From sequence record NC_054913.1: a stretch of 64,000 nucleotides of DNA; one strand, 5' to 3'. Shown piece after piece: positions 1-62,823 of this stretch. Below the pieces are notes generated by a model, which did not search any database, was not told where the DNA came from, and saw only the letters and a program-made list of their open reading frames with translations. This DNA comes from Escherichia phage F2. Position 1 is the stretch's first letter. Every line of letters begins with the position of its first letter. The translations under genes were made by a program, and so were the position numbers.

Positions 1-2
1 AT

Positions 3-218
3 ATGTTTGAAGTGCTTGATAATGCAGCCGAACTCAGAGTTCATGCTCAACTAACTCATGTACTCAATGCTTTGCTCCCAGACCAAGTAGATTCTATTGC
101 TATTACTCTTCTCCCTGGGTCTGCACACGTCATAGTGGTATTTGATCTTGACGGCGATTTAGTTATCCAATGTGATATCAATTTCGGTACACAAAAAATT
201 GAATGCAAAGCAATTTAA
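3..218 (+). CDS. hypothetical protein (ORFan)
   Basis: 71-codon ORF from the track; co-directional with the early genes; no recognisable motif. Confidence 0.3.
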   Translation: MFEVLDNAAELRVHAQLTHVLNALLPDQVDSIAITLLPGSAHVIVVFDLDGDLVIQCDINFGTQKIECKAI

Positions 219-278
219 TGGTTTACAACATGGTGGAGTTGTGATACTATAACTCTACCAACAAATGAGGAAATAGAA

Positions 279-515
279 ATGCTAAGTGAAAACCCAATTA
301 CAGTACACGAATTTCAGATTAAAGTAAAAGAATTTGCTCAAGCACTCATCAATAAAGTGTCTGAACGTTTCCAAGATGCAACATTACGAGTTATTCAAGA
401 ATCTCCACGTTCTTTTCTCATAATCGTTAATCCTAAAGATGGTGACCAAATTACTAATCTTAAATTAGGCAGTGATGGTCTTGTTGAAGCAACTCGAGTA
501 TATGGAACACTATAA
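279..515 (+). CDS. hypothetical protein (ORFan, 78 aa)
   Basis: ORF preceded by GAGGAAATAGAAATG; no recognisable motif. Confidence 0.4.
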   Translation: MLSENPITVHEFQIKVKEFAQALINKVSERFQDATLRVIQESPRSFLIIVNPKDGDQITNLKLGSDGLVEATRVYGTL

Positions 516-635
516 TGAGAGCTATCTCATTACTATCGTGAATGGTCATAAATCTGAGAACTACCAACTTAGCCTGTCTAATCCGGTTAAAGGTATTGTT
601 GAATCAGAATCTGTTTATATCTCCTAAGGATTGTT

Positions 636-1628
636 ATGTTACCTGTCATCAGAAAACTTATTTCTCCAAAAGAACTGGCTGAGATTATTCCTTTGTCGGA
701 AGCTTACGCATCACAAGTGGCTTCTCATCGCGAACAAGTTAATTCGATTATGAACGGTGAAGACCCACGCAAACTTATTGTTGTAGGTCCTTGTTCAATT
801 CATGACCCTATTGCTGCTGTTGAATACGGCAAACGTCTGGCTGAACTTCAAACTCGTCTTCCTAATGTTCTGTTAGTGATGCGCGTTTATTTTGAAAAGC
901 CTCGAACTACCGTAGGTTGGAAAGGTCTTGTAAATGATCCATATCTTGACGGAAGTTTTGATATGAACCACGGTCTTATAGTTGCACGAACATTGTGTCG
1001 TAAACTTCTACGTATGGGACTTCCATTAGCAACTGAAGTATTAGACCCATTCACGATTAAGTATCTTTCTGGTATTTTCTCATGGGTTGCTATTGGCGCC
1101 CGTACGACTGAAAGTCAGACACATCGTGAAATTGCTTCAGGTCTACCGATGTGCGTAGGCTTCAAGAACGCAACCAATGGTTCTATTAAAGTAGCTACAG
1201 ACGCGATGTATAGTGCCGCCTGGCCTCATCGGTATATGGGTATGGACGTCGATGGTACTGTAGGCATTGTTGAAGCTGAAGGTAATCAGAATACGCATAT
1301 CGTATTGCGTGGCGGGACCAACGGCCCGAACTATCATTCTTCTGATATTCAAGAAGCTTCTAACAAAGCAAGGGCAGTAGGTCTGAATCATTATGTAATG
1401 GTTGACTGTAGCCATGCAAACGCTGATGGTCATTATAGCAATCAAATTGGTATTGGTAAAAATTTAGCAGCTAATGATTTGGTCAAAGGAATTATGATAG
1501 AATCATTCCTACATGAAGGAAATCAAAAAATTTCTGATAATATGTCCTATGGCGTTTCCGTTACCGATGCGTGCATCAGTTGGGAACAAACTAAAGAGCT
1601 GTTAACTTATATTAATAAGGTTCAATAA
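636..1628 (+). CDS. 3-deoxy-D-arabino-heptulosonate-7-phosphate (DAHP) synthase, class I (AroG/F/H-like)
   Basis: 330 aa; blocks LIVVGPCSIHDP, MRVYFEKPRTTVGWKGL, IGARTTESQTHRE, GFKN, HIVLRGG, GIMIESFLHEGNQ match class I DAHP synthases; stop overlaps cd start (TAATG). Confidence 0.9.
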   Translation: MLPVIRKLISPKELAEIIPLSEAYASQVASHREQVNSIMNGEDPRKLIVVGPCSIHDPIAAVEYGKRLAELQTRLPNVLLVMRVYFEKPRTTVGWKGLVNDPYLDGSFDMNHGLIVARTLCRKLLRMGLPLATEVLDPFTIKYLSGIFSWVAIGARTTESQTHREIASGLPMCVGFKNATNGSIKVATDAMYSAAWPHRYMGMDVDGTVGIVEAEGNQNTHIVLRGGTNGPNYHSSDIQEASNKARAVGLNHYVMVDCSHANADGHYSNQIGIGKNLAANDLVKGIMIESFLHEGNQKISDNMSYGVSVTDACISWEQTKELLTYINKVQ

Positions 1629-4686: not shown

Positions 4687-5301
4687 ATGTTTAAAGTTAA
4701 TACTTTTTATAAAATGAATTTTAAAAATGGGGATATTACTCCACGCCTTAAAAACATGTTCTCATATGACCTTATCGAGCCTTTTGAAGTTTTAGAAGTT
4801 ACTGATGCCGGCTCGGTTTGTGAAATTAGAACTTCTGAAGGTAAAATTTATCAGGCAGGTGTTGGTAAATTCAGTAATTGTTTTACTTTAATATTCTCGA
4901 CCGATTTAGATGAGCATTTTATTGAATGTCCTAACCCTAAGGTCCACGAAGTTCCACATCAAGAAACTAAGAAAAATGGCCCGCACGAATATACGAAGGT
5001 TGAAACTCCTCACGGCGTGATGTGGCGTCATAACTCTCCTTTTGGAAGTAAAGGAACATTTGCTCAACCGTCTAAACCGTATGACGATGAAAAATACATC
5101 GTCGTCTTTTTATCTGAACAGGGTACTCAAGACAGTGGATGCCAACGTTCCGGTTTATTGAGTGAACTTGAAGCTCATAACCAAGCACGTGAATTCGTTG
5201 AGAAAAATCCTGGTTCTGAAGCTCTAGTCATGAAAGCAATTACTCAATATATCACTGCTCAACCTGTTGTTCATCCAGTAGAAATTAATTTCGTTAAGTA
5301 G
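4687..5301 (+). CDS. hypothetical protein (ORFan, 204 aa)
   Basis: long ORF with RBS GAGG before the ATG; no motif recognised. Confidence 0.55.
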   Translation: MFKVNTFYKMNFKNGDITPRLKNMFSYDLIEPFEVLEVTDAGSVCEIRTSEGKIYQAGVGKFSNCFTLIFSTDLDEHFIECPNPKVHEVPHQETKKNGPHEYTKVETPHGVMWRHNSPFGSKGTFAQPSKPYDDEKYIVVFLSEQGTQDSGCQRSGLLSELEAHNQAREFVEKNPGSEALVMKAITQYITAQPVVHPVEINFVK

Positions 5302-9030: not shown

Positions 9031-11118
9031 ATGTCTGAACAATTAAATGAAGTGTTTGAATCTGAAGGCAGTCTTCCTGTCGTCAATTTGAACCCTAAAG
9101 CTAAAGTTCCACAAGTCTGGAAAATTGGTGATATCGATACAAACATCGTAGTTCGCTTATTCTCTTACCTTTCTGAAGGCGATGCTGTAAAACAAGTTAA
9201 ACTTGGCGACAAATACGCTCATGTTGTTATTATGAGTCTGTCTGAAAAGGGTAATCTCGCTGAATTGAAAAATGGCCTTGGTCCTGCTCCTATTGATGCA
9301 ATCAACACCATTTTCAATACGGTATATGAACAGGTTAAAGCTCTTCGTATGGATGCAGTTCTGTTCCGGTTCCCTACCAAGAAATTGAAAGGACGTGGAC
9401 AACAGCTTCAAACTCTTCTTGCTCGTTTAGTTTCTACTAAAACTGGCGGTCGTTTTAAAGTATTGTCAGCAATGTATCAATTCACAGGTAAACACACCTA
9501 TGTGATGATGGTTCGTAAAAATGCCAACATTGAAGATATTAAAGGCATCCCTAACATTAACACAGAGTTGTACACGAAAGTAGATTCTGATGTTGGCGAA
9601 GTTTATGTGAGTAAAAAGACTGGTGAAATGGTCACCAAAGAAGCGGCTATCGCTGGTTCTATTGCTGCTGTAGAAGAAAAACGTAAAGATAAGCCTGTTA
9701 TTGCTCGTACTAAAATTTCTCGTCGTGCTATTGCAGCAAGTCAATCTTTAGAAGCTGACCGCCAAGAAGGTGAGTTATTCCAGAAATACGAAAATTCTGC
9801 TAAAGAAGTTAGTGGCCCAGCTACAGCCGAATTACTTCCTGAAGCATATGAAATCGTACTAGCCCAAGCATCGTCCACAGCAAAAGGCACTTTAGTTGCT
9901 GATATCGAAAATAAGATTTATAATCGTATTGATGAATCCTTTAGATTTGCTGATGAAGTTTCTTATGGTAGTGTTATTAAGCCAACTTTAGAAAAGTTTG
10001 CTAAGAAAATTAAAACTGAAAAAACAACATCTGTTAAAGCATTAGCTGCTTTTGTTGAAGCTGCAAATGAAATTGCAGACTCTATTAAAGACGAATGGTT
10101 TGAAGATTTTAGACGTGATAATTTCCAACTGGCCGACGACGTTTTAGCTGAAGTATCTGAAAAAACTTGGAAACAACGTAAATCAGCGTTCTTGTCTAAT
10201 GTGATGTATACTTATGCACGAGAATCGGCTAGAGGCACCTTTAATATAACAATGAATCGGGACCCTAAACAATACTCTGTTGCTGAAAAACGAGCTATTC
10301 GTGAATATGCCTCTTCTGCGTATACCGATATCAATAATATGTTGTTAGGTCGTTATAAACCAGATTTTTACGATGTTGCAGATGAAGATGAAGTTAAACG
10401 CGCTATTGATGGTCTTGATTCGGCGTTTTTAAATGGAGACCGTTTACCTGAAGGACTAACGTTATATAGAGCCCAGTCTATCAGAATGCCTATTTACGAA
10501 GCAATGGTTAAAAATAAGGTATTCTACTTCAGAAACTATGTTTCCACTTCACTAGCTCCTATTATTTTCGGTGGGTTTAAAGAGAACGTTGCCCTTGGAC
10601 TTGCTCCTGAAGAAGTTCGCAAAGAGCTTAACATTGACAATAATGACGAAGGTGTTACTATTTCTCCTAGTCAAGTAAGAACAGCTATGCATGCACCAGA
10701 CCAAATCCGTGTTAACGTTGGATGGGCTATTGATGGCGCCCATAAAGTTAACGTGATTTATCCTGGACAGTTGAGTAATCACCCTAATGAGCAAGAAATT
10801 ATTTTGCCTAGAGGCATTCTCTTGCAGATAAATAAAATTACGGATGCGTCATCTGACACTGGTGCAGGTTTAGAATCCAACCTTAAATTTATTCAAGCTG
10901 AAGTCATGTCCTCAGACCAGTTGGACGAAGTTGTCATTTACGATGGTGATGTTCTCATGGAAACAGGCGAGGTGGTTGCTATGACTGGTGAAATCGAATC
11001 AGATGAGCCGATATCGTTCTCCTCATTTGTAGAAAAAACTAGTGCTCCTAAAGGATTGAAATTGTTAGCATCTTTAATGGATTTAGAATCAGTTCCGTTT
11101 AAATTTGTCCAAGGATAG
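9031..11118 (+). CDS. alt: Alt-type ADP-ribosyltransferase (capsid-packaged, modifies host RNA polymerase)
   Basis: 695 aa versus T4 Alt 682; position between gene 30 and gene 54; ART motifs YRAQS (Arg), YVSTSLA (STS), QEIILPRG (catalytic Glu region). Confidence 0.75.
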   Translation: MSEQLNEVFESEGSLPVVNLNPKAKVPQVWKIGDIDTNIVVRLFSYLSEGDAVKQVKLGDKYAHVVIMSLSEKGNLAELKNGLGPAPIDAINTIFNTVYEQVKALRMDAVLFRFPTKKLKGRGQQLQTLLARLVSTKTGGRFKVLSAMYQFTGKHTYVMMVRKNANIEDIKGIPNINTELYTKVDSDVGEVYVSKKTGEMVTKEAAIAGSIAAVEEKRKDKPVIARTKISRRAIAASQSLEADRQEGELFQKYENSAKEVSGPATAELLPEAYEIVLAQASSTAKGTLVADIENKIYNRIDESFRFADEVSYGSVIKPTLEKFAKKIKTEKTTSVKALAAFVEAANEIADSIKDEWFEDFRRDNFQLADDVLAEVSEKTWKQRKSAFLSNVMYTYARESARGTFNITMNRDPKQYSVAEKRAIREYASSAYTDINNMLLGRYKPDFYDVADEDEVKRAIDGLDSAFLNGDRLPEGLTLYRAQSIRMPIYEAMVKNKVFYFRNYVSTSLAPIIFGGFKENVALGLAPEEVRKELNIDNNDEGVTISPSQVRTAMHAPDQIRVNVGWAIDGAHKVNVIYPGQLSNHPNEQEIILPRGILLQINKITDASSDTGAGLESNLKFIQAEVMSSDQLDEVVIYDGDVLMETGEVVAMTGEIESDEPISFSSFVEKTSAPKGLKLLASLMDLESVPFKFVQG

Positions 11119-11152
11119 TTTACAAACACATGGATGTGTGATACTATCATCC
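11118..11152 (+). promoter_or_regulatory. T4-type early promoter (PeSL-like)
   Basis: GTTTAC at 11118-11123, TACTAT at 11142-11147, imperfect inverted repeat GGATG / CATCC around the -10. Confidence 0.5.
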
Positions 11153-11163
11153 CATCAACAACA

Positions 11164-11470
11164 CGAGGAAAACGTTATGAAATCTATGCTTCGCTTTAAT
11201 GGTCAAGAACTAGTAGTTGAAGATGTTATCCCAGCGGATGATGCTTTTAACGAAGCTGTGATTGACGAATTGAATCGAGTATTCCCAGGTGCATTCCATA
11301 TTGCTATGGAACCTCTTAAAAACTTTCGTGACCCTGAACACACTGATCAAATTTTTGTCGGTGTAGTGACGGGTCATTTAGAAACAGAGGTACCAATGGT
11401 CGTATTAGTTAAATACTCTAAAGATGATACTCCATTCCGAGCACCAGCATTCCTTTCATTCCGTAAATAA
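11164..11470 (+). CDS. hypothetical protein (102 aa)
   Basis: ORF with RBS GAGGAAAACGTTATG; own promoter and terminator. Confidence 0.5.
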
Positions 11471-11479
11471 ACCCCTAAA

Positions 11480-11502
11480 GGGAGACGTTGTCTCCCTTTT
11501 TC
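11480..11502. terminator. bidirectional terminator hairpin between convergent genes
   Basis: GGGAGAC-GTT-GTCTCCC followed by TTTTTC on +, A-run on the other strand. Confidence 0.55.
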
Positions 11503-11503
11503 T

Positions 11504-12466
11504 TTATAGTCCTAAAACTCTTGACGCAGAATTCACCACACCTGTCAATGTGTTTATATTAGACACACCTCCAGCAGTCCCACCTAATCTAGAAAGTCTT
11601 GATACTGCACTTCCTAGACCAGAATCATTCTGATTATTTCCAAACATTCCTGAAACACTACTAATAAGTCCTGATTCCAGCCATTCTAAAGCAGCCTGTC
11701 TATTTACAGCACCTGATTGCATAACGCGATAAGCAAATGTTACATCAAAAACTGTTATCTGATTATCACCGTCATACGTTAACTCAGGAGAAGAGACACT
11801 AACAGGAATACATCCAGTGAACATGACAGCGGTATGTGGTAAACCATTTCGTGCATGTAAATTAACCTGAATATCTGCTTCGACGTCTTGTGGTAAAGCA
11901 CGAAGACCTGTTACAGGGTCTTGGACTGAGTTTACCCAGTCTTGCATTGCTCTAAAGTTAGATGCTTCGGAATCCATTCTAAAGCTTATTACTAACGGGT
12001 CCATTTCACGGCCGGTAATTCGGATGTTCGGTGAGTTATAGTTGAAATCTGTTTCATAAGATAATCGGTTCTCAGGCATTTTTACAGAATAAATCATTAA
12101 ACCTGTATTATTATATGCCATATTGAAGAAGTCTATCAGATAAGATCCTACTGTGAACTCGCCTAACAAGCTTTGTACCGTACGTTGACTCATTGCTCCA
12201 ATCAGATATTTACTTACACCTGATTTTCGAATTAATTTCTGTGTTCCTGCTGTAATCAGGGTTGTTACGCCCTGATTGATATCACCTTGAGTCAATCCTA
12301 GCCAATCAGAATCCAACCCTAAGTTATTATAAGCAAAACTACCAATTGACGAAATTAGTGAAGATGATTTAGTCGACGGTGTAGTAGCAAATACACAACT
12401 AAACATATTGTTTCGTTGGAAATCTGCATTTATAGCTTGGTTATTAAATTCTTCTAAAGAGTACAT
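11504..12466 (-). CDS. 54: baseplate tail-tube junction protein gp54
   Basis: 320 aa, T4 gp54 size and position after gp48. Confidence 0.75.
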   Translation of the reverse strand: MYSLEEFNNQAINADFQRNNMFSCVFATTPSTKSSSLISSIGSFAYNNLGLDSDWLGLTQGDINQGVTTLITAGTQKLIRKSGVSKYLIGAMSQRTVQSLLGEFTVGSYLIDFFNMAYNNTGLMIYSVKMPENRLSYETDFNYNSPNIRITGREMDPLVISFRMDSEASNFRAMQDWVNSVQDPVTGLRALPQDVEADIQVNLHARNGLPHTAVMFTGCIPVSVSSPELTYDGDNQITVFDVTFAYRVMQSGAVNRQAALEWLESGLISSVSGMFGNNQNDSGLGSAVSRLSRLGGTAGGVSNINTLTGVVNSASRVLGL

Positions 12467-23718: not shown

Positions 23719-23808
23719 AATCTAGGTTCTATCCATTCAAATTAAACATTGGGTCAGAGATAGAGTCTCTGCTAATTATTTTGATATTATTATTTATAAT
23801 GGTGATTT

Positions 23809-24816
23809 ATGTTTAAGAAATACAGCAGTCTTGAAAACCACTACAACTCTAAGTTTATTGAAAAACTCTACACTAATGGTTTGACTACTGGTGTTTGGGT
23901 AGCACGTGAGAAAATCCATGGGACCAACTTCTCGTTAATAATTGAACGTGACAACGTCACATGCGCCAAGCGCACAGGCCCTATTCTTCCAGCAGAAGAT
24001 TTTTACGGCTATGAAATCGTACTCAAGAAGTATGATAAAGCTATTAAAGGTGTTCAAGAAGTCATGGAAAGTATTTCAACTTCAGTGCCGGTGTCATATC
24101 AAGTCTTTGGTGAATTCGCCGGTGGTGGAATCCAGAAAGGTGTTGACTACGGTGAAAAAGATTTTTATGTGTTCGATATCATCATAAACACGGAAAGTGA
24201 TGATACTTATTATATGAGTGATTACGAAATGCAAGATTTCTGTAATACGTTTGGTTTTAAAATGGCACCAATGCTTGGTCGTGGAACATTTGATTCTCTT
24301 ATCATGATTCCAAATGACCTTGATTCCGTCTTAGCCGCTTATAATGCTACTGCGTCAGAAGACCTTGTAGAAGCAAATAATTGTGTATTTGATGCTAATG
24401 TTATTGGCGATAATACGGCAGAAGGTTATGTTCTGAAGCCTTGTTTCCCTAAATGGCTGCCAAACGGTACTCGTGTAGCTATTAAGTGCAAGAACTCTAA
24501 ATTCAGTGAAAAGAAAAAGTCAGATAAGCCTATTAAAACTCAGGTTCCATTATCCGAAATTGACAAAAACTTGCTTGATGTTCTAGCTTGTTATGTTACA
24601 TTAAATCGTGTTAATAATGTGATTTCTAAGATTGGGACTGTAACGCCAAAAGATTTTGGCAAAGTGATGGGATTGACTGTTCAAGATATTCTGGAAGAAA
24701 CTTCTCGTGAAGGTATTGTATTAACATCATCTGATAATCCGAATCTTGTTAAGAAAGAATTAGTCCGAATGGTGCAAGATGTTCTGCGTCCTGCATGGAT
24801 TGAATTAGTATCATAA
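23809..24816 (+). CDS. rnlB: RNA ligase 2
   Basis: 335 aa; near-collinear with T4 Rnl2 from recall ([21 protein letters not shown] ... [12 protein letters not shown] ... [11 protein letters not shown]). Confidence 0.85.
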
Positions 24817-24817
24817 C

Positions 24818-24846
24818 GAAAAAGGGACCGTAAGGTCCCTTTGTTT
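24818..24846. terminator. bidirectional terminator between rnlB and gene 24
   Basis: AAAGGGACC-GTAA-GGTCCCTTT flanked by A and T runs. Confidence 0.6.
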
Positions 24847-26129
24847 TATTCATCAATAATAATTTTTGGTAGCTTAACACCTAATAAAACAGACAAATCT
24901 GAACGTCCTGCCATTTTATCCATGTCCCCACCATCAATTACTCTCGCTTCTTTTTCATCTTTTGCTACTGTGTAAGGATTCGCAGATAAAGCATATCTAA
25001 CCAATAATCCGATAGATGGTTGCAAGCTTTCTGGATCAACTACGACTTTAAATGCACCGACATGTTCCGGGTCATCTAAATCTACTCCTTCAGTGTATGG
25101 AGCATAAAAGATGGACCCCACAATTTCTTTTTCGCCGATATTTTCTACAACACCCACAATAACATAATCTAACGGACTGTTGGTATCGCAGTAAAGAGGT
25201 AATCCATTTGCCAAGAATCCATAAGCATTTTGTGAAAGATACTTGTCATCTTCTGGCTTATGTTTTAACCAACCAGAAGCAGCAAGAATAGCAGCTGCAC
25301 GAGCTGAGGCTACACAAAACGTTGCAGTATAAGTTGTCTCTTTTTGAATGTGTGATACCATTTCACACACCATTCGATATAATGAACGACCTGCTTCTGG
25401 AGCGGATGCATAGCTCAAGTCAATAAATCCGGTGTCAGTAATTCCAGTAACTTTATAACGTTTCGATACAGTAATTAAAGACTGAAGAATATCTTTATTA
25501 ATTTCATCAGCCATTTCAGTAGCAAGCAAATCTTCTAAGAAGTTAGGGGCATCAAATCCATTCGCTTCCAAATCTTGCGCTAATTCAACCGTGAGGCCAG
25601 TTTTAAGTTTACGAGATTTGACTGAAGTTTGCCATTTATTAATCTGGAATCTTGCATCAGAAATTTCGCTATCAGAGCTTTCAAATTTGCTTGTTACCGC
25701 TGCATCTGAAAATAACCGTACCTTTAAATGAACGACTGCAATCTGAAGAGCTAATTCTAGATCACTTTCTTGAATATCTGCAAATGGTGTATCTTCTAAC
25801 ACTTTATAGACGATATTATTATATTTGAAAAAATCGCCTTTATTTAGTGTGACTTTTGATTCTTCTGTGAGCTCAGTAATTTTTTCTCGGTCTACATATC
25901 CAACTTCACCAGCATAAGTAGCACCAGTTTTAAATGTGAATTCGTTATCTGGGTTAAGATATTTGATACCATAAAAAGCAGCAACAGGTTGATTAGTTCT
26001 TTGTGTTGCTACAATGTCAGAATATATTAATTTAGTCGTAGCGCGAGTCAAAGCAACGAGATTTGGGCGACCGATTGAGTTGCTAGTAGACGTTGTAGAT
26101 TCACGCAATAATTTTTGGATTTTACTCAT
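24846..26129 (-). CDS. 24: head vertex protein gp24
   Basis: 427 aa as T4 gp24; gp23 paralogue. Confidence 0.85.
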   Translation of the reverse strand: MSKIQKLLRESTTSTSNSIGRPNLVALTRATTKLIYSDIVATQRTNQPVAAFYGIKYLNPDNEFTFKTGATYAGEVGYVDREKITELTEESKVTLNKGDFFKYNNIVYKVLEDTPFADIQESDLELALQIAVVHLKVRLFSDAAVTSKFESSDSEISDARFQINKWQTSVKSRKLKTGLTVELAQDLEANGFDAPNFLEDLLATEMADEINKDILQSLITVSKRYKVTGITDTGFIDLSYASAPEAGRSLYRMVCEMVSHIQKETTYTATFCVASARAAAILAASGWLKHKPEDDKYLSQNAYGFLANGLPLYCDTNSPLDYVIVGVVENIGEKEIVGSIFYAPYTEGVDLDDPEHVGAFKVVVDPESLQPSIGLLVRYALSANPYTVAKDEKEARVIDGGDMDKMAGRSDLSVLLGVKLPKIIIDE

Positions 26130-26159
26130 TGCATTTTTTCCTTATTGAGAATATAATTT

Positions 26160-26167
26160 TATTTATA
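26160..26167 (-). promoter_or_regulatory. late promoter for gene 24
   Basis: TATTTATA on + (TATAAATA on -) 31 bp before the gene 24 start. Confidence 0.5.
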
Positions 26168-26173
26168 AAAGTG

Positions 26174-26203
26174 GTTTACACACAAAAAGTGTTGTGTTAC
26201 TAT
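26174..26203 (+). promoter_or_regulatory. T4-type early promoter
   Basis: GTTTAC at 26174-26179, 18-bp spacer, TACTAT at 26198-26203, shared downstream block TAGACCTATCAA. Confidence 0.55.
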
Positions 26204-26232
26204 AGACCTATCAAAACATGAGGAGATTAAAA

Positions 26233-26499
26233 ATGAACAAATTAAACTTTATCCGTACCACACTTTCTAACCTTGACAAAGACATCAAAGCTCTGGTAGA
26301 AAAATTTGGTACCAATCCTAATGGTAATGCAGTTAATGCATTGGTTAAGAAATACGAAGCCCTGGCTTATGAAACTGACTTCTGGTGGAACGGTGAATAT
26401 TCTACCCATACCAAAGACAAATCTGGTAACTGGCTGAAAATCCAAGAAAATCGTATTGACTTCCGTGATATCATCAACCGTCGTGTCAAAGCAGCGTAA
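26233..26499 (+). CDS. hypothetical protein (88 aa)
   Basis: ATG 26233 after RBS GAGGAG; track start at 26218 is upstream in frame. Confidence 0.5.
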   Translation: MNKLNFIRTTLSNLDKDIKALVEKFGTNPNGNAVNALVKKYEALAYETDFWWNGEYSTHTKDKSGNWLKIQENRIDFRDIINRRVKAA

Positions 26500-26502
26500 A
26501 TT

Positions 26503-27162
26503 ATGAATTATTTAATTTACAAAATAACCAATCTCATTAATAACAAGATTTATATTGGAGCCCATGCCACTACAGATGTTAACGATTCTTATATGGGTTC
26601 CGGGGTTAACATAGTAAAATCCATAAAGAAATACGGCTTAGAGAATTTTAAAAAGGAAATCCTTTTCAATTTCGAAACATCTGAAGAGATGTATGCTAAG
26701 GAAGCCGAACTAGTTGACGAGGCTTTTGTCATGAGAACAGATACTTATAATGCCGCCTTAGGCGGCAAGGGTAATCCTGTTATAGTAGCTTTACAGGAAC
26801 CTGGGTATCGTGAGATGTTATCCGAAAAGACAAAAGCTGGTATGACTGAAGAAGTTCGGGCCAAAATATCTAAAAAGAAATTAGGTTCTAAAGAATCTAA
26901 AGAACATCGAGAAAACAAATCTATATCAAATAAAAAGTTTTATAAAAATAGAGATTCTCATCTTAAAGGTAGAAAACTATCAGAAGAGCATAAAGCAAAA
27001 ATTAGAAAGAATTCTAATAAAGGTAAGAAATTTGTATTTGTGGATATTTCTATTAAAGGTCATGAATTTAACCACTACGATTACGCTGCCGAATTCTTTA
27101 ACGTATCCGCAAAAACTATAAGAAATTGGATTAATGAACGCGATGATTGTTTTAAGCTATAG
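26503..27162 (+). CDS. GIY-YIG homing endonuclease (segD-like position)
   Basis: N-terminal YLIYKITN...IYIGAH GIY-YIG motif with downstream E and N residues; T4 has segD between genes 23 and 24. Confidence 0.75.
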   Translation: MNYLIYKITNLINNKIYIGAHATTDVNDSYMGSGVNIVKSIKKYGLENFKKEILFNFETSEEMYAKEAELVDEAFVMRTDTYNAALGGKGNPVIVALQEPGYREMLSEKTKAGMTEEVRAKISKKKLGSKESKEHRENKSISNKKFYKNRDSHLKGRKLSEEHKAKIRKNSNKGKKFVFVDISIKGHEFNHYDYAAEFFNVSAKTIRNWINERDDCFKL

Positions 27163-27172
27163 AAACAAGAAT

Positions 27173-27190
27173 GGGAGACCGGAGTCTCCC
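27173..27190. terminator. hairpin between convergent genes (putative terminator)
   Basis: GGGAGAC-CGGA-GTCTCCC. Confidence 0.45.
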
Positions 27191-27219
27191 ATAAGGTTAT
27201 GTATTTTAACGTTAAAGCA

Positions 27220-28788
27220 TTAAATTCCTTTAACGTAGACGCGTCTAAAGTAAGCGTTCTTACCAAGGCTGTTCAGGATAGACGGCATACCGGACTGGAT
27301 GCGAGCACCTGGAGCCTGCAGGGAACTTTCAGCAAACGGGTTAACACCGATACCGTAACGAGTTTTAAAGCCCATTACTGGCTGGAAGTTCTTAGGATCG
27401 GAACCACGTAGTGGGGTAAGTGCAACGTAAGGAGCATAGTAAATACCTGCATCCATTTCGTTAGCGCCTTTGTAACCAACGGTGAAGTAATCCTGTTTAG
27501 CATACTGGTCGATGTATACTCGGTATTTACCACCAAGTACACCGGCAAATACAGATTTAGTAGTGTCGGTATTAAAACCAGAAGCCAGACCCTGTGCAGC
27601 ATAAGAAATACCAGTATCAACTGAAGCCAGTACGTTAACTACGTTACGGGAAGCGATAATGAAGTTACCTTCACCACGACCGGTTTGACGAGCAATTTCA
27701 ACTGCTTCTTTATCAATCTGGAACAACAGAGCTTTAAAGCTTTCACCGGCCCAACGAGCACCACGGATATCAATCGGGTCCTGGAAGTCAAATACACCAG
27801 CTTTAGAACCAACGATATTAGTCATACCAGATTTACCAACCTGAGCGGAGTAGTTAATCCAGTCAACAACTTCACGGTTGATTTCCAGCATAATTTCAGT
27901 GGCAAGAATACCGCTCAGTTCAGCATCAGCATCCATACCGTGTACTGCACGGAGGTCTTGTGCCAATTCGATGGAGTAAGCTGCTTTCAGCTGACGAGAT
28001 TTAGCTTCAATAACTTGTTTGTCGATACGGAAGCCCATTTCGTTCCACGGGTTGTCGGTAGAACCATTGAAGCCTTCCTGAAGTTCAGCGATAGAAGTAG
28101 CCATACCTTCAGCGATTTCTACCAGTACACCAGCTTCCATTTGTTTCTTAATTTCAGCATCCAGTTTAGTTGCATCGGTAGCGCCAGCATCGATTGTTAC
28201 TACAGCGGAAGCTTGTAGATACACAGTACCAGTTTCCTGGAAGAAGTGAGTATAGATATCACCTACAACGGTTTGTGTGCTAGCAGCCAGAGCTGGGAAT
28301 TTCTTAGCAGCACCCTGACCAGAGAACATCGCGTCTGGAGCATACATCGGATGGAAAGCTTCTTTAGCGTCAGCAGCGATAGGGTCTTTACCATATACTG
28401 CACGGAGAGCAAATACCTGACCGGTAGGGCTGTTCATAGGCTGAACACCACAAATATCGAAAGCGATCAGATTAGGAATAGCACGACGAACCATACCCAT
28501 AACTGCCGGCCCAATCTGGGTTACTGCACCAGAGGTTTGACCTGCTGCGATGTTCTGAGCATTATAACCATGGTCGCCACCAATTTCAGCTTCGGTCAAG
28601 AAAGAACCAAATGCCTGAGCGATTTTCTCGTCTTTATATTCAGGGGATACTTCGAAATCTTTTTCCTGGTTTTCGAAGATTTTAGCGATAATAGCCTGCT
28701 TGCTATTAGCGATTTCCGGCAGGCCTTCACCTTCCAGCAGTTCTTTCCATTTGTCTACGAGCTGAGCTTTAGTTTTGATAGTAGTCAT
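27220..28788 (-). CDS. 23: major capsid protein gp23
   Basis: 522 aa; near-collinear with T4 gp23 from recall (GEGLPEIANSKQAIIAKIFENQEKDF ... AFGSFLTEAEIGGDHGYNA). Confidence 0.95.
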   Translation of the reverse strand: MTTIKTKAQLVDKWKELLEGEGLPEIANSKQAIIAKIFENQEKDFEVSPEYKDEKIAQAFGSFLTEAEIGGDHGYNAQNIAAGQTSGAVTQIGPAVMGMVRRAIPNLIAFDICGVQPMNSPTGQVFALRAVYGKDPIAADAKEAFHPMYAPDAMFSGQGAAKKFPALAASTQTVVGDIYTHFFQETGTVYLQASAVVTIDAGATDATKLDAEIKKQMEAGVLVEIAEGMATSIAELQEGFNGSTDNPWNEMGFRIDKQVIEAKSRQLKAAYSIELAQDLRAVHGMDADAELSGILATEIMLEINREVVDWINYSAQVGKSGMTNIVGSKAGVFDFQDPIDIRGARWAGESFKALLFQIDKEAVEIARQTGRGEGNFIIASRNVVNVLASVDTGISYAAQGLASGFNTDTTKSVFAGVLGGKYRVYIDQYAKQDYFTVGYKGANEMDAGIYYAPYVALTPLRGSDPKNFQPVMGFKTRYGIGVNPFAESSLQAPGARIQSGMPSILNSLGKNAYFRRVYVKGI

Positions 28789-28805
28789 TTGTGTTAACCT
28801 TTAAA

Positions 28806-29618
28806 TTAGAAACGAGATGCGACTTTCGCATATAAACTTACATTAGAATTCTGTTCTACCTGAGTTGTGGTAGTGTCAACTGCTTCGGCAACAAAATTAA
28901 GACCGGCAGCGTCATTGTCAACTGTATTTATACCTTCGGTAATAGCGGCTTCTTCTTTAGTAGAACCTTTAACCATTTCTACAATAGCAGTTAACTTAGT
29001 ACCAAATGCGTCAGAATAATCCATACCTTCAACCAGGCCAATAACTTTTTCTTTCTGAGATTCAGTCAGGTCTTTTACGCTTTCATTAATAGCGGTTTCA
29101 CGCTGAACGTAATTGATATATGCATCACGTTTGGTAACTTCTTCGAACAAACGAGCGGTTTCTTCTTTATGTTCGGCCAGCTCTTCTTCCATTTCTGCTA
29201 CAACATCTACAGATTCTTCTGGAACAACAACGTTATGTTCAACAAACAGTTCTTTCAGACCACCAAGCATGGATTCGAACAAATCAGCTTTAATGCCTTT
29301 ATCAACTGCGATTTGGTTTTCTGCGAGCCATTCTTTTGCAAGATGGTCTAGGAATTTAGAAGCTTGTTCAGCCAATTTTTTATCAGCTTTCTCTTCAGCA
29401 TCTTCTTTAGCCTTTTCAACTTCTTCTTCGGCTTTTTCGGCGATGGCTTTGATATGAGATTCAGCCAGTTTGACTGCTTCCTGCTTAACGGTGGCTTCGA
29501 ATACAGTGCTGAAATTAGCTTTAACGTCCGGAGACAGTTCTACTGATTCGAAAACACTATTAAGAGCAACTGAAGTCTCGATGTTTTGAGCTTCTTTCAA
29601 AAGTTGTTCTTTGATCAT
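28806..29618 (-). CDS. 22: prohead core scaffold protein gp22
   Basis: 270 aa versus T4 269; acidic coiled-coil composition. Confidence 0.8.
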   Translation of the reverse strand: MIKEQLLKEAQNIETSVALNSVFESVELSPDVKANFSTVFEATVKQEAVKLAESHIKAIAEKAEEEVEKAKEDAEEKADKKLAEQASKFLDHLAKEWLAENQIAVDKGIKADLFESMLGGLKELFVEHNVVVPEESVDVVAEMEEELAEHKEETARLFEEVTKRDAYINYVQRETAINESVKDLTESQKEKVIGLVEGMDYSDAFGTKLTAIVEMVKGSTKEEAAITEGINTVDNDAAGLNFVAEAVDTTTTQVEQNSNVSLYAKVASRF

Positions 29619-29648
29619 TTTAGTGTCCTGTGGTTTAGATTACATTAT

Positions 29649-29656
29649 TATTTATA
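29649..29656 (-). promoter_or_regulatory. late promoter for gene 22
   Basis: TATTTATA on + 31 bp before the gene 22 start, inside the gene 21 3' end. Confidence 0.45.
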
Positions 29657-30293
29657 ATGCTTTTAAACTCTCTGTGAGAGCTTTAAATGCTTCATCAGCA
29701 CTGTTTTTGGTGATTTCCACCGAATTTTCTGATTCTGATATTTGTTTAGGAGTAACCCAAGCATCTGGAGCAGAAGGTCCCCATACGGCATCTACGCCGA
29801 CGGTTAATTTAAATCCTTCGTTCACGATACGGTACCCTTTATTGGTGTCGGTTAAAGAACCAAGACCACGAGAGGAAACACCTGGAATCCAACCGGCGCG
29901 TATATTAGCAGCTAATTTATCGCCGGGACCATGGTCGCCTTCAATAATTCTAGCACGTCCATATACATCGTTTCCTTTCCACCACATATCTTCAATAATG
30001 ATAGCGGCTTGCATAGGGTCAACATTTGCACGAGGTGGATGGTTTAATTCTCCAAGGGCTTGTTTGGTTTCGACTTGTTCTTTAATATAGTCACTTACTG
30101 CTTTTTCCAAAACACGTTTAGGATATAAACGTTTATTTCGGTTAACAACCTCTGCCTGAAGAAAAATACCTTCTATATAAAGCCCTGGTTTTAAGCCAGA
30201 ATCTTTTCCATCATGAGATTCCAACATTGGAACGCCATCAATAATCTCACCGGGTTGACCCCAAGTTTCAATAAGTAACTCGGGTTTATTCAT
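29652..30293 (-). CDS. 21: prohead protease gp21
   Basis: 213 aa versus T4 212; synteny. Confidence 0.85.
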   Translation of the reverse strand: MNKPELLIETWGQPGEIIDGVPMLESHDGKDSGLKPGLYIEGIFLQAEVVNRNKRLYPKRVLEKAVSDYIKEQVETKQALGELNHPPRANVDPMQAAIIIEDMWWKGNDVYGRARIIEGDHGPGDKLAANIRAGWIPGVSSRGLGSLTDTNKGYRIVNEGFKLTVGVDAVWGPSAPDAWVTPKQISESENSVEITKNSADEAFKALTESLKAL

Positions 30294-62670: not shown

Positions 62671-62745
62671 GGCCCTGTAGCTCAATGGGAGAGCTGTCAG
62701 CTCATAACTGATAGGTAGCTGGATCGAAACCAGCCAGGGCCACCA
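62671..62745 (+). tRNA. tRNA with CAU anticodon (Met, or lysidine-modified Ile2)
   Basis: manual cloverleaf: acceptor GGCCCTG/CAGGGCC, D arm GCTC/GAGC, anticodon loop CTCATAA, T arm GCTGG-ATCGAAA-CCAGC, encoded CCA. Confidence 0.8.
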
Positions 62746-62751
62746 AACAAA

Positions 62752-62823
62752 TGGTGCATCGTATAAAGGTTATTACGGGGAGCTGTTAACTCCTTTATCT
62801 TGGTTCGAGTCCAAGTGCGCCAG
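62752..62823 (+). tRNA. tRNA-Asn (GUU anticodon), putative
   Basis: manual fold: acceptor TGGTGCA/TGCGCCA with one G-U pair, anticodon loop CTGTTAA, T arm CTTGG-TTCGAGT-CCAAG; D stem has one mismatch. Confidence 0.55.

Follow-up and report, generated by a model that had tools for sequence, protein, structure and literature searches.

Carbon entry into the shikimate pathway of Escherichia coli is controlled mainly at 3-deoxy-7-phosphoheptulonate (DAHP) synthase, which is subject to feedback inhibition and to repression through TyrR/TrpR, and the later enzymes of the pathway are largely constitutive. Phages can carry DAHP synthase genes of their own, and such genes are already known at the level of annotation: the phiC120 genome paper lists a DAHP synthase domain (PMC8022965), and the Klebsiella phage KLB31 paper proposes DAHP synthase as an auxiliary metabolic gene (PMC11845039). 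We found no biochemical or genetic study of a phage DAHP synthase in the literature searched, and the BASEL paper does not mention the gene. Bacteria are also known to have naturally unregulated DAHP synthase isozymes that serve special demands, such as PhzC (PMC6435475). Here, we analyze the DAHP synthase gene in a 64,000-nt stretch of DNA from Escherichia phage F2 (NC_054913.1; hereafter the window), which occupies positions 636-1628 on the + strand. A preliminary description of this locus implied that a phage-encoded DAHP synthase was new, which it is not: the gene has been annotated in GenBank for years, has its own protein family (PHROG 5045), and appears in at least two genome papers. 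What stands out is that the inhibitor pocket of the enzyme has been rewritten, and we consider it reasonably probable that the gene encodes a catalytically competent, feedback-insensitive, resident phage DAHP synthase that keeps shikimate carbon flowing during infection.

The gene runs from an ATG to a TAA stop at 1626-1628 and encodes a full-length type I-alpha DAHP synthase of 330 amino acids (aa), which the preliminary description had recognized as a full-length class I enzyme. The protein matches Pfam PF00793 (DAHP_synth_1; E=5e-75, 252 bits against a cutoff of 25.5) and the NCBIfam models TIGR00034 (aroFGH; 428.5 bits against 173.2) and NF009395 (455.9 against 343), and it matches PHROG 5045 end to end (residues 1-330, E=2.5e-182), a family placed in the category "moron, auxiliary metabolic gene and host takeover". 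Its scores stay below the isozyme equivalog cutoffs for AroG (NF006723, 364.5 against 568) and AroH (NF009396, 386.7 against 463); the closest of the E. coli isozymes is AroF, which is also the best solved relative (E=4e-105). Since the protein has the KPRT motif and its top NCBIfam matches are all DAHP synthase models, assignment as a KDO8P synthase is disfavored.

The AlphaFold model of the synthase is of high confidence (mean predicted local distance difference test score, 91.4; predicted template modeling score, 0.91), with a single low-confidence stretch, the KPRTTV loop at residues 89-94. It shows a (beta/alpha)8 barrel preceded by helices at 11-17 and 22-39, with a beta-hairpin at 198-214 and coil over the first ~10 residues. 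Foldseek aligned the model with the solved type I-alpha enzymes of N. meningitidis and E. coli (5DCB, 1KFL, and 8E0Z) at TM-scores of 0.94-0.96 and root mean square deviations of 1.4-1.7 Å. The active site is intact. The metal ligands C53, H260, E289, and D311 (AroG C61, H268, E302, and D326) are invariant in all 24 phage-clade sequences, and so are ten residues that contact phosphoenolpyruvate (PEP) or erythrose 4-phosphate (E4P), including the KPRT motif. Thus the catalytic residues, whose absence from an alignment the preliminary description had raised as a ground for doubt, are present in full: 14 catalytic and substrate residues in all, among them the KPRT(T) motif and the equivalents of AroG R92, K97, R99, T100, R165, K186, and R234. 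The phage enzyme would be expected to condense PEP and E4P to DAHP with release of phosphate.

The regulatory site is a different matter. In type I-alpha enzymes, the N-terminal extension and the beta-hairpin build the inhibitor site (PMC4735112). The preliminary description had suggested that the phage enzyme escapes control by aromatic amino acids on the grounds that its N terminus is 15-20 aa shorter than that of AroG. The alignment does not support this figure: the phage N terminus is 8, 9, and 7 residues shorter than those of AroG, AroF, and AroH, respectively, and the rest of the length difference is made up of two internal deletions (5 and 3-4 aa) and a shorter C terminus. Ahead of the AroG L16 column, members of the phage clade consistently have 6-10 residues; the nearest bacterial relatives listed mostly have 14-19. 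The equivalents of AroG D6/D7, which have a role in the inhibitor site of the AroG-Phe structure, are missing in 24 of 24 clade members.

The suggestion of escape itself is plausible, and the stronger grounds for it come from the pocket. We counted a position as a fixed difference when the phage clade (n=24) and the 95 nearest bacterial homologs each agreed on one residue in at least 90% of their sequences and the two consensus residues differed. Six of the 330 aligned positions qualify, in AroG numbering P150I, Q151K, D155G, S180P, F209Y, and T223A, and five of the six fall among the 11 inhibitor-site or feedback-resistance positions of a published review (PMC9529685; hypergeometric P=9e-8). 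The new pocket residues are I141, K142, and G146 (AroG P150, Q151, and D155; each in 23/24 clade members) together with P171 and Y200 (AroG S180 and F209; both 24/24). According to this review, the side chains of AroG Q151 (AroF Q152) and S180 (AroF S181) hold the main chain of bound Phe or Tyr, a salt bridge of D155 stabilizes the inhibitor site, and the substitutions P150L, S180F, and F209A/S in AroG confer feedback resistance (PMC9529685). Both residues that contact the inhibitor backbone are replaced in the phage enzyme. Because the pocket is rewritten and the tip of the N-terminal extension is removed, the enzyme would most likely not be inhibited by Phe, Tyr, or Trp.

The gene is at home in phages. 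Over its first 3 kb, the window has 99.6% identity with Escherichia phage vB_EcoM_JQD51 and 99.2% with JS09, so it derives from a JS09-like Mosigvirus, the same genus as RB69. A tblastn search with the synthase returned 211 phage records, in which every match covers at least 80% of the protein and is a full-length, intact open reading frame (ORF). Most numerous are the 138 records at ≥95% identity, the majority of which carry a DAHP synthase annotation in one wording or another (the proteins of NBG1 and Mizar match at 100%); 47 more lie at 60-80%, including Klebsiella, Enterobacter, Edwardsiella, and Erwinia phages and phage EcS1, and 26 lie below 60%, including Proteus phages. Distant copies of 55-77% identity sit at the same pseT-cd locus in T4-like phages of Klebsiella, Enterobacter, Edwardsiella, Erwinia, Serratia, Proteus, and Providencia, and in all, 138 Mosigvirus genomes that were sequenced independently, and no fewer than six further phage genera, have the gene at this locus. 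The gene order, seen in ten of ten T4-like loci from IMG/VR as well as in Marfa and phiP4-3, is pseT, small ORFs including cd.2, the DAHP synthase gene, zero to two small ORFs, cd, 31.1, and gp31.

Phylogenetically, the phage sequences form one clade (87 of 100 neighbor-joining bootstraps), and the nearest bacterial relatives, at 50-54% identity, are spread over many phyla. In the two informative pairs available, dN/dS was 0.05 (Klebsiella phages) and 0.15 (Enterobacter/Edwardsiella phages), indicating purifying selection. The GC content of the gene (41.0%; 29% at third codon positions, GC3) is close to that of cd (40.0%; 26%) and differs from that of E. coli aroG/F/H (52-53%; 50-57%). These comparisons support the view of the preliminary description that the gene is an AT-rich phage resident rather than host carry-over. 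Sequence comparison indicates a long-standing resident of a single T4-like phage lineage, acquired once.

RB69 lacks the synthase gene, and its cd.2 directly abuts cd with the same kind of overlap. BLAST aligns window positions 1-530 and 1625-2976 with RB69 (96-97% identity) and gives no match for the sequence that separates them. The segment absent from RB69 (531-1624, +) comprises a ~105-nt leader and the synthase; measured in register with the repeat at its junction, it is 1,113 bp (515 to 1628). This junction repeat (513-530, +) consists of a second TAATG and an imperfect copy of the opening 16 nt of cd (ATGAGAGCTATCTCAT compared to ATGAAAGCTAGCACAT at 1628-1643, 13/16 identical), and both flanks of the indel align to one 19-bp stretch in RB69. 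The two genomes therefore differ by a 1.1-kb indel between short direct repeats. Since distant genera share the locus, it is simpler to assume that the RB69 line lost the gene. Separately, the cd protein of the RefSeq RB69 record has 170 aa (L006:11743-12252) and diverges after "...ADILK" from the 193-aa protein of the window; the old RB69 record probably contains a frameshift or a sequencing error here, and other such errors in the RB69 sequence have been reported (PMC13326640).

The synthase gene is part of the frd-td-nrdAB-denA-...-pseT-cd block of early/middle nucleotide-metabolism genes, with which it would be transcribed. Its stop codon overlaps the start of cd in a TAATG (1626-1630, +; cd ATG at 1628-1630, shared A), as the preliminary description had read it, and the overlap probably reflects translational coupling. 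The operon with cd that was proposed there agrees with the co-orientation and overlap of the two genes and with a consensus scan of the region, which shows neither a promoter-like nor a terminator-like site between them. Promoter-like sites were no more numerous here than in shuffled sequence, and the terminator scan likewise gave nothing above shuffled expectation; because of this, we predict expression timing from gene order only.

T-even phages stop host transcription. After such a shut-off, AroG, AroF, and AroH could not be re-induced, and in nutrient-rich conditions, they would be feedback inhibited. A deregulated phage copy would sustain carbon entry into the shikimate pathway, for which the host already has the later enzymes in place, and the phage DAHP synthase alone would suffice for chorismate production while the host isozymes are inhibited. 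The useful products would be chorismate-derived. Candidates are aromatic amino acids, needed for a large burst of phage protein, folate precursors (possibly the p-aminobenzoate moiety of folate), and quinones.

Several observations weigh against a simple loss of control with a benefit to the phage. Within the clade, the pocket positions vary less than the remaining positions (mean entropy 0.39 vs. 1.02; Mann-Whitney P=0.01). As the substituted residues are near-invariant, the pocket may still have a role rather than being simply disabled, and its conservation may fit the binding of another ligand or a structural role at the dimer interface. In addition, the pocket is labile in the family at large: of its 150 representatives at 50% identity, just 76 have both Q151 and S180 and 45 have neither of the two, so a changed pocket is not unusual. 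The literature we searched holds only passing annotation remarks on phage DAHP synthases, with no enzyme assay, expression data, or mutant phenotype. Finally, any benefit must be conditional because the close relative RB69 does without the gene.

The same survey led us to reject the notion that pocket remodeling is unique to the phage clade, given the 76 of 150 representatives that keep both residues, although the particular combination found in the phages occurs in none of the 150. Two top-scoring representatives (P0121 and P0122) were considered as relatives of the clade and rejected; they are tandem double DAHP synthases, in which two copies raise the score. Other virus-associated copies keep the canonical pocket, except for one lineage (L021/L022) with P-N-H-P-Y-S. 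This lineage (L021:9971-11020 and L022; IMGVR_UViG_3300028829_003504, a contig of 261,788 bp and so of jumbo phage size) encodes a DAHP synthase of 48% identity that shares S180P and F209Y with the T4-like clade, so that its pocket is partly remodeled. The 3' end of the gene overlaps a thymidylate kinase ORF, and its neighbors include genes for a NUDIX protein, a type IB topoisomerase, a Tad6-like protein (Thoeris inhibitor domain), and a Dam methylase. As the lineage is a weak sister of the T4-like clade (57/100 bootstraps), shared ancestry is possible, and we do not claim convergent remodeling.

The alternative that survives best, although we regard it as fairly unlikely, is that the enzyme is active and still allosterically controlled, by a different ligand, with the remodeled pocket (Ile-Lys, Gly, Pro, Tyr) forming a new effector site. 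Given the change of Gln to Lys, the ligand would perhaps be an anionic metabolite, e.g. chorismate, prephenate, a nucleotide, or a nucleotide sugar, and entry into the shikimate pathway would then be tied to the phage's own metabolism. The conservation of the pocket noted above speaks for this, all the more as the substituted residues are near-invariant across a clade that has diverged to 55% identity, and the model retains the site-building beta-hairpin and most of the N-terminal extension. However, the same residues lie at the tight-dimer interface, where conservation may be structural, and the sequence yields no candidate ligand.

A second alternative, which we consider quite improbable, gives the synthase a role in DNA hypermodification. 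Mosigviruses replace cytosine with arabinosylated 5-hydroxycytosine, and a diversion of ribulose-5-phosphate (Ru5P) has been proposed (PMC13326640). The premise is that this lineage diverts Ru5P into uridine diphosphate-arabinose to arabinosylate 5-hydroxycytosine; an irreversible drain of E4P (and PEP) by the synthase could re-route the non-oxidative pentose-phosphate pathway toward pentose supply. Our tblastn surveys of the nucleoside diphosphate (NDP)-pentose cluster returned 274 records for the SIS isomerase and 372 for the AfhE-like nucleotidyltransferase-kinase. Among the matches listed, all synthase-bearing lineages also carry the cluster (one or both of these two genes) and so form a subset of the cluster-bearing lineages. 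Counts of synthase and cluster match for Klebsiella (25 and 25), Proteus (7 and 7), Serratia ATCC 39006 hosts (6/6/6), and LF82 hosts (13/13/13), and the close relative Mizar has the full cluster. Because the synthase was acquired once, however, this co-occurrence amounts to roughly a single evolutionary event and may reflect shared ancestry only. RB69 and Acinetobacter phages, including DLP3, arabinosylate their DNA without a synthase (for Acinetobacter, 57 cluster records stand against 4 weak DAHP synthase matches), and the gene goes unmentioned in the papers on the modification pathway. From reasoning only, an E4P drain would also waste carbon and compete with pentose formation by the reverse non-oxidative route.

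If either of these ideas held in its phage-specific form, with the pocket as a new regulatory site for a phage-relevant metabolite or the synthase as an E4P/PEP valve that meets the pentose demand of arabinosyl-5-hydroxycytosine, it would explain why the synthase is restricted to T4-like lineages that have the NDP-pentose cluster; we judge this unlikely. In Mizar, the complete arabosyl-5-hydroxycytosine toolkit lies between uvsX and gp43 (23,725-30,273; L005:11726-18274), a region outside the window, and consists of a ThyA homolog, a HAD/PNK-like phosphatase, a 561-aa nucleotidyltransferase-kinase, and a SIS arabinose-5-phosphate isomerase, most of them annotated as hypothetical.

It is very improbable that the gene is a decaying or non-enzymatic remnant, such as a protein with a structural or moonlighting role. 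RB69 can dispense with it, and the canonical regulatory residues have been lost, but its catalytic residues are all invariant, dN/dS is 0.05-0.15, the ORF is intact in 211 of 211 records, and the barrel is modeled with high confidence. Recent carry-over from the host or an assembly chimera has next to no probability: the family is otherwise typical of bacteria and one cluster representative is labeled Escherichia coli by its source (though on a contig of 170,875 bp, the size of a phage genome), but this explanation is refuted by the 44-51% identity to E. coli AroH/G/F, by the GC3, and by the recurrence of the gene in independent genomes, which also rules out the chimera with host DNA envisaged in the preliminary description.

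The preliminary description was right that the T4 locus holds cd.x genes and pseT, but the synthase does not take their place: the cd.3 and cd.2 homologs are kept, with the synthase inserted between cd.2 and cd, and pseT lies further upstream in close relatives. The window opens within a cd.3 homolog (DUF7355), of which the 3' part is present (3-218, +; Pfam PF24051, E=4e-21, profile positions 21-93 of 93; the gene begins before the window); at the cd.3 position, the record of phage Mizar has a 91-aa coding sequence similar to an ORF of the T4 cd-pseT intergenic region. The cd.2 homolog (DUF7320; 279-515, +) encodes 78 aa (Pfam PF24005, E=1.5e-35; PHROG 1504). Upstream of it, a candidate promoter of sigma-70 or T4-early-like type (222-250, +; TTTACA, 17-nt spacer, TACTAT, and TG; 9/12 in the consensus scan) is weakly suggested as a possible start of a transcript that spans the synthase and cd. 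A Shine-Dalgarno-like ribosome-binding site, TAAGGA (625-630, +), precedes the synthase ATG by 5 bases, and a ribosome-binding site is annotated at the same place in Mizar. Downstream, cd (1628-2209, +) encodes a dCMP deaminase of 193 aa (Pfam PF00383, E=1.6e-26; PHROG 174, E=8e-75) and is followed by a gp31.1 homolog with a WYL_2 domain (2199-2507, +; Pfam PF10902; PHROG 1086), for which the Mizar annotation begins the coding sequence at the ATG at 2211. The Cpn10-like co-chaperonin gp31 (2565-2897, +; Pfam PF00166; PHROG 931, E=5e-50) forms the downstream end of the conserved block.

Some smaller features deserve mention. An ORF of 50 aa (475-627, +), hypothetical in the Mizar annotation, overlaps the last part of cd.2 and takes up the leader of the inserted segment. 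It had no match in the families tested, and phage Marfa lacks a counterpart ahead of its synthase, so that this ORF may not be a real gene. Inside the synthase, the opposite strand has a sigma-70-like promoter match (1432-1460, -; TTTACC, 17-nt spacer, TATAAT, and TG; 10/12) near an antisense ORF of 100 aa (1143-1445). As the count of such sites is not above shuffled expectation, this match is probably due to chance. Elsewhere in the window, the gp30-rIII interval contains a 204-aa ORF (4687-5301, +) that is hypothetical in Mizar, where no T4 counterpart is noted, and three tRNA genes lie near the right end (+ strand): Met(CAT) at 62671-62745, Asn(GTT) at 62752-62823, and Arg(TCT) at 63549-63624. 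This trio corresponds to the usual T4-like tRNA cluster.

The existence of the gene alone changes nothing. It is an annotated phage auxiliary metabolic gene, ordinary in kind; what may merit a small experiment is the prediction of feedback resistance, which is specific and cheap to test. According to it, the enzymes of an entire clade, found in coliphages and in Klebsiella and Proteus phages, may be DAHP synthases that multiple natural substitutions have made feedback resistant. If true, few other auxiliary metabolic genes of enterobacterial T4-like phages would have a mechanism as well defined. It would mean that these phages need host aromatic/chorismate metabolism to keep running after host shut-off, and it would offer metabolic engineers a ready-made deregulated DAHP synthase. 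RB69, nearly isogenic and naturally null for the gene, makes the physiology directly testable.

Compared with known systems, the phage protein is closest in kind to the E. coli isozymes AroF (PDB 6AGM/6AGL), AroG, and AroH, to which it is 51%, 48%, and 44% identical. It has the same fold, belongs to the same subfamily, and is identical to them in its metal ligands, KPRT motif, and PEP/E4P residues; at the position of AroG S211, it has Gly, as in AroF. In contrast to the three isozymes, it is encoded by a virus, has phage codon composition, lacks the first 7-9 residues, carries two internal deletions and a shorter C terminus, and has P150I, Q151K, D155G, S180P, and F209Y in place of the canonical pocket residues. 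The phage DAHP synthases already in databases (PHROG 5045; phages HX01, JS09, PhAPEC2, phiC120, Marfa, phiP4-3, and KLB31, among others) are the same gene at the same locus.

Fusions of DAHP synthase, chorismate mutase, and prephenate dehydratase in giant-virus metagenome-assembled genomes are, like the phage enzyme, virus-associated type I-alpha enzymes with the catalytic set intact. Unlike it, they have the canonical P-Q-D-S-F-T pocket, are fused to the Phe branch, share 41-45% identity with it, and lie in unrelated genomic contexts. We observed these 633-682-aa proteins, which join a type I-alpha DAHP synthase, a chorismate-mutase-like segment, and prephenate dehydratase, on ~12 AT-rich viral or giant-virus contigs from IMG/VR (L046, L056 [9980-11992], L058, L069, L070, L073, L077-L079, L082, L084, and L085; mostly giant-virus metagenome-assembled genomes). 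They unite the first step of the pathway and the Phe branch in one polypeptide, and their KPRT motif has Ser for Thr.

PhzC, the type IIB DAHP synthase of the Pseudomonas phenazine cluster, is an entry enzyme without aromatic amino-acid allostery, and the phage enzyme would resemble it as a dedicated, unthrottled supply of chorismate (PMC6435475). PhzC differs in that it belongs to the type II class (<10% identity to type I), lost its regulation by deletion of helices, and is chromosomal. The nearest parallel to the pocket itself is found in engineered feedback-resistant enzymes (AroG P150L, S180F, Q151 variants, and F209A/S; AroF-cg Q159A and S188F), in which the same positions are changed as in the phage (PMC9529685). 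In the phage enzymes, these changes are natural, combined, fixed across the clade, and under purifying selection, and the resistance that engineering has conferred on AroG is, for them, a prediction.

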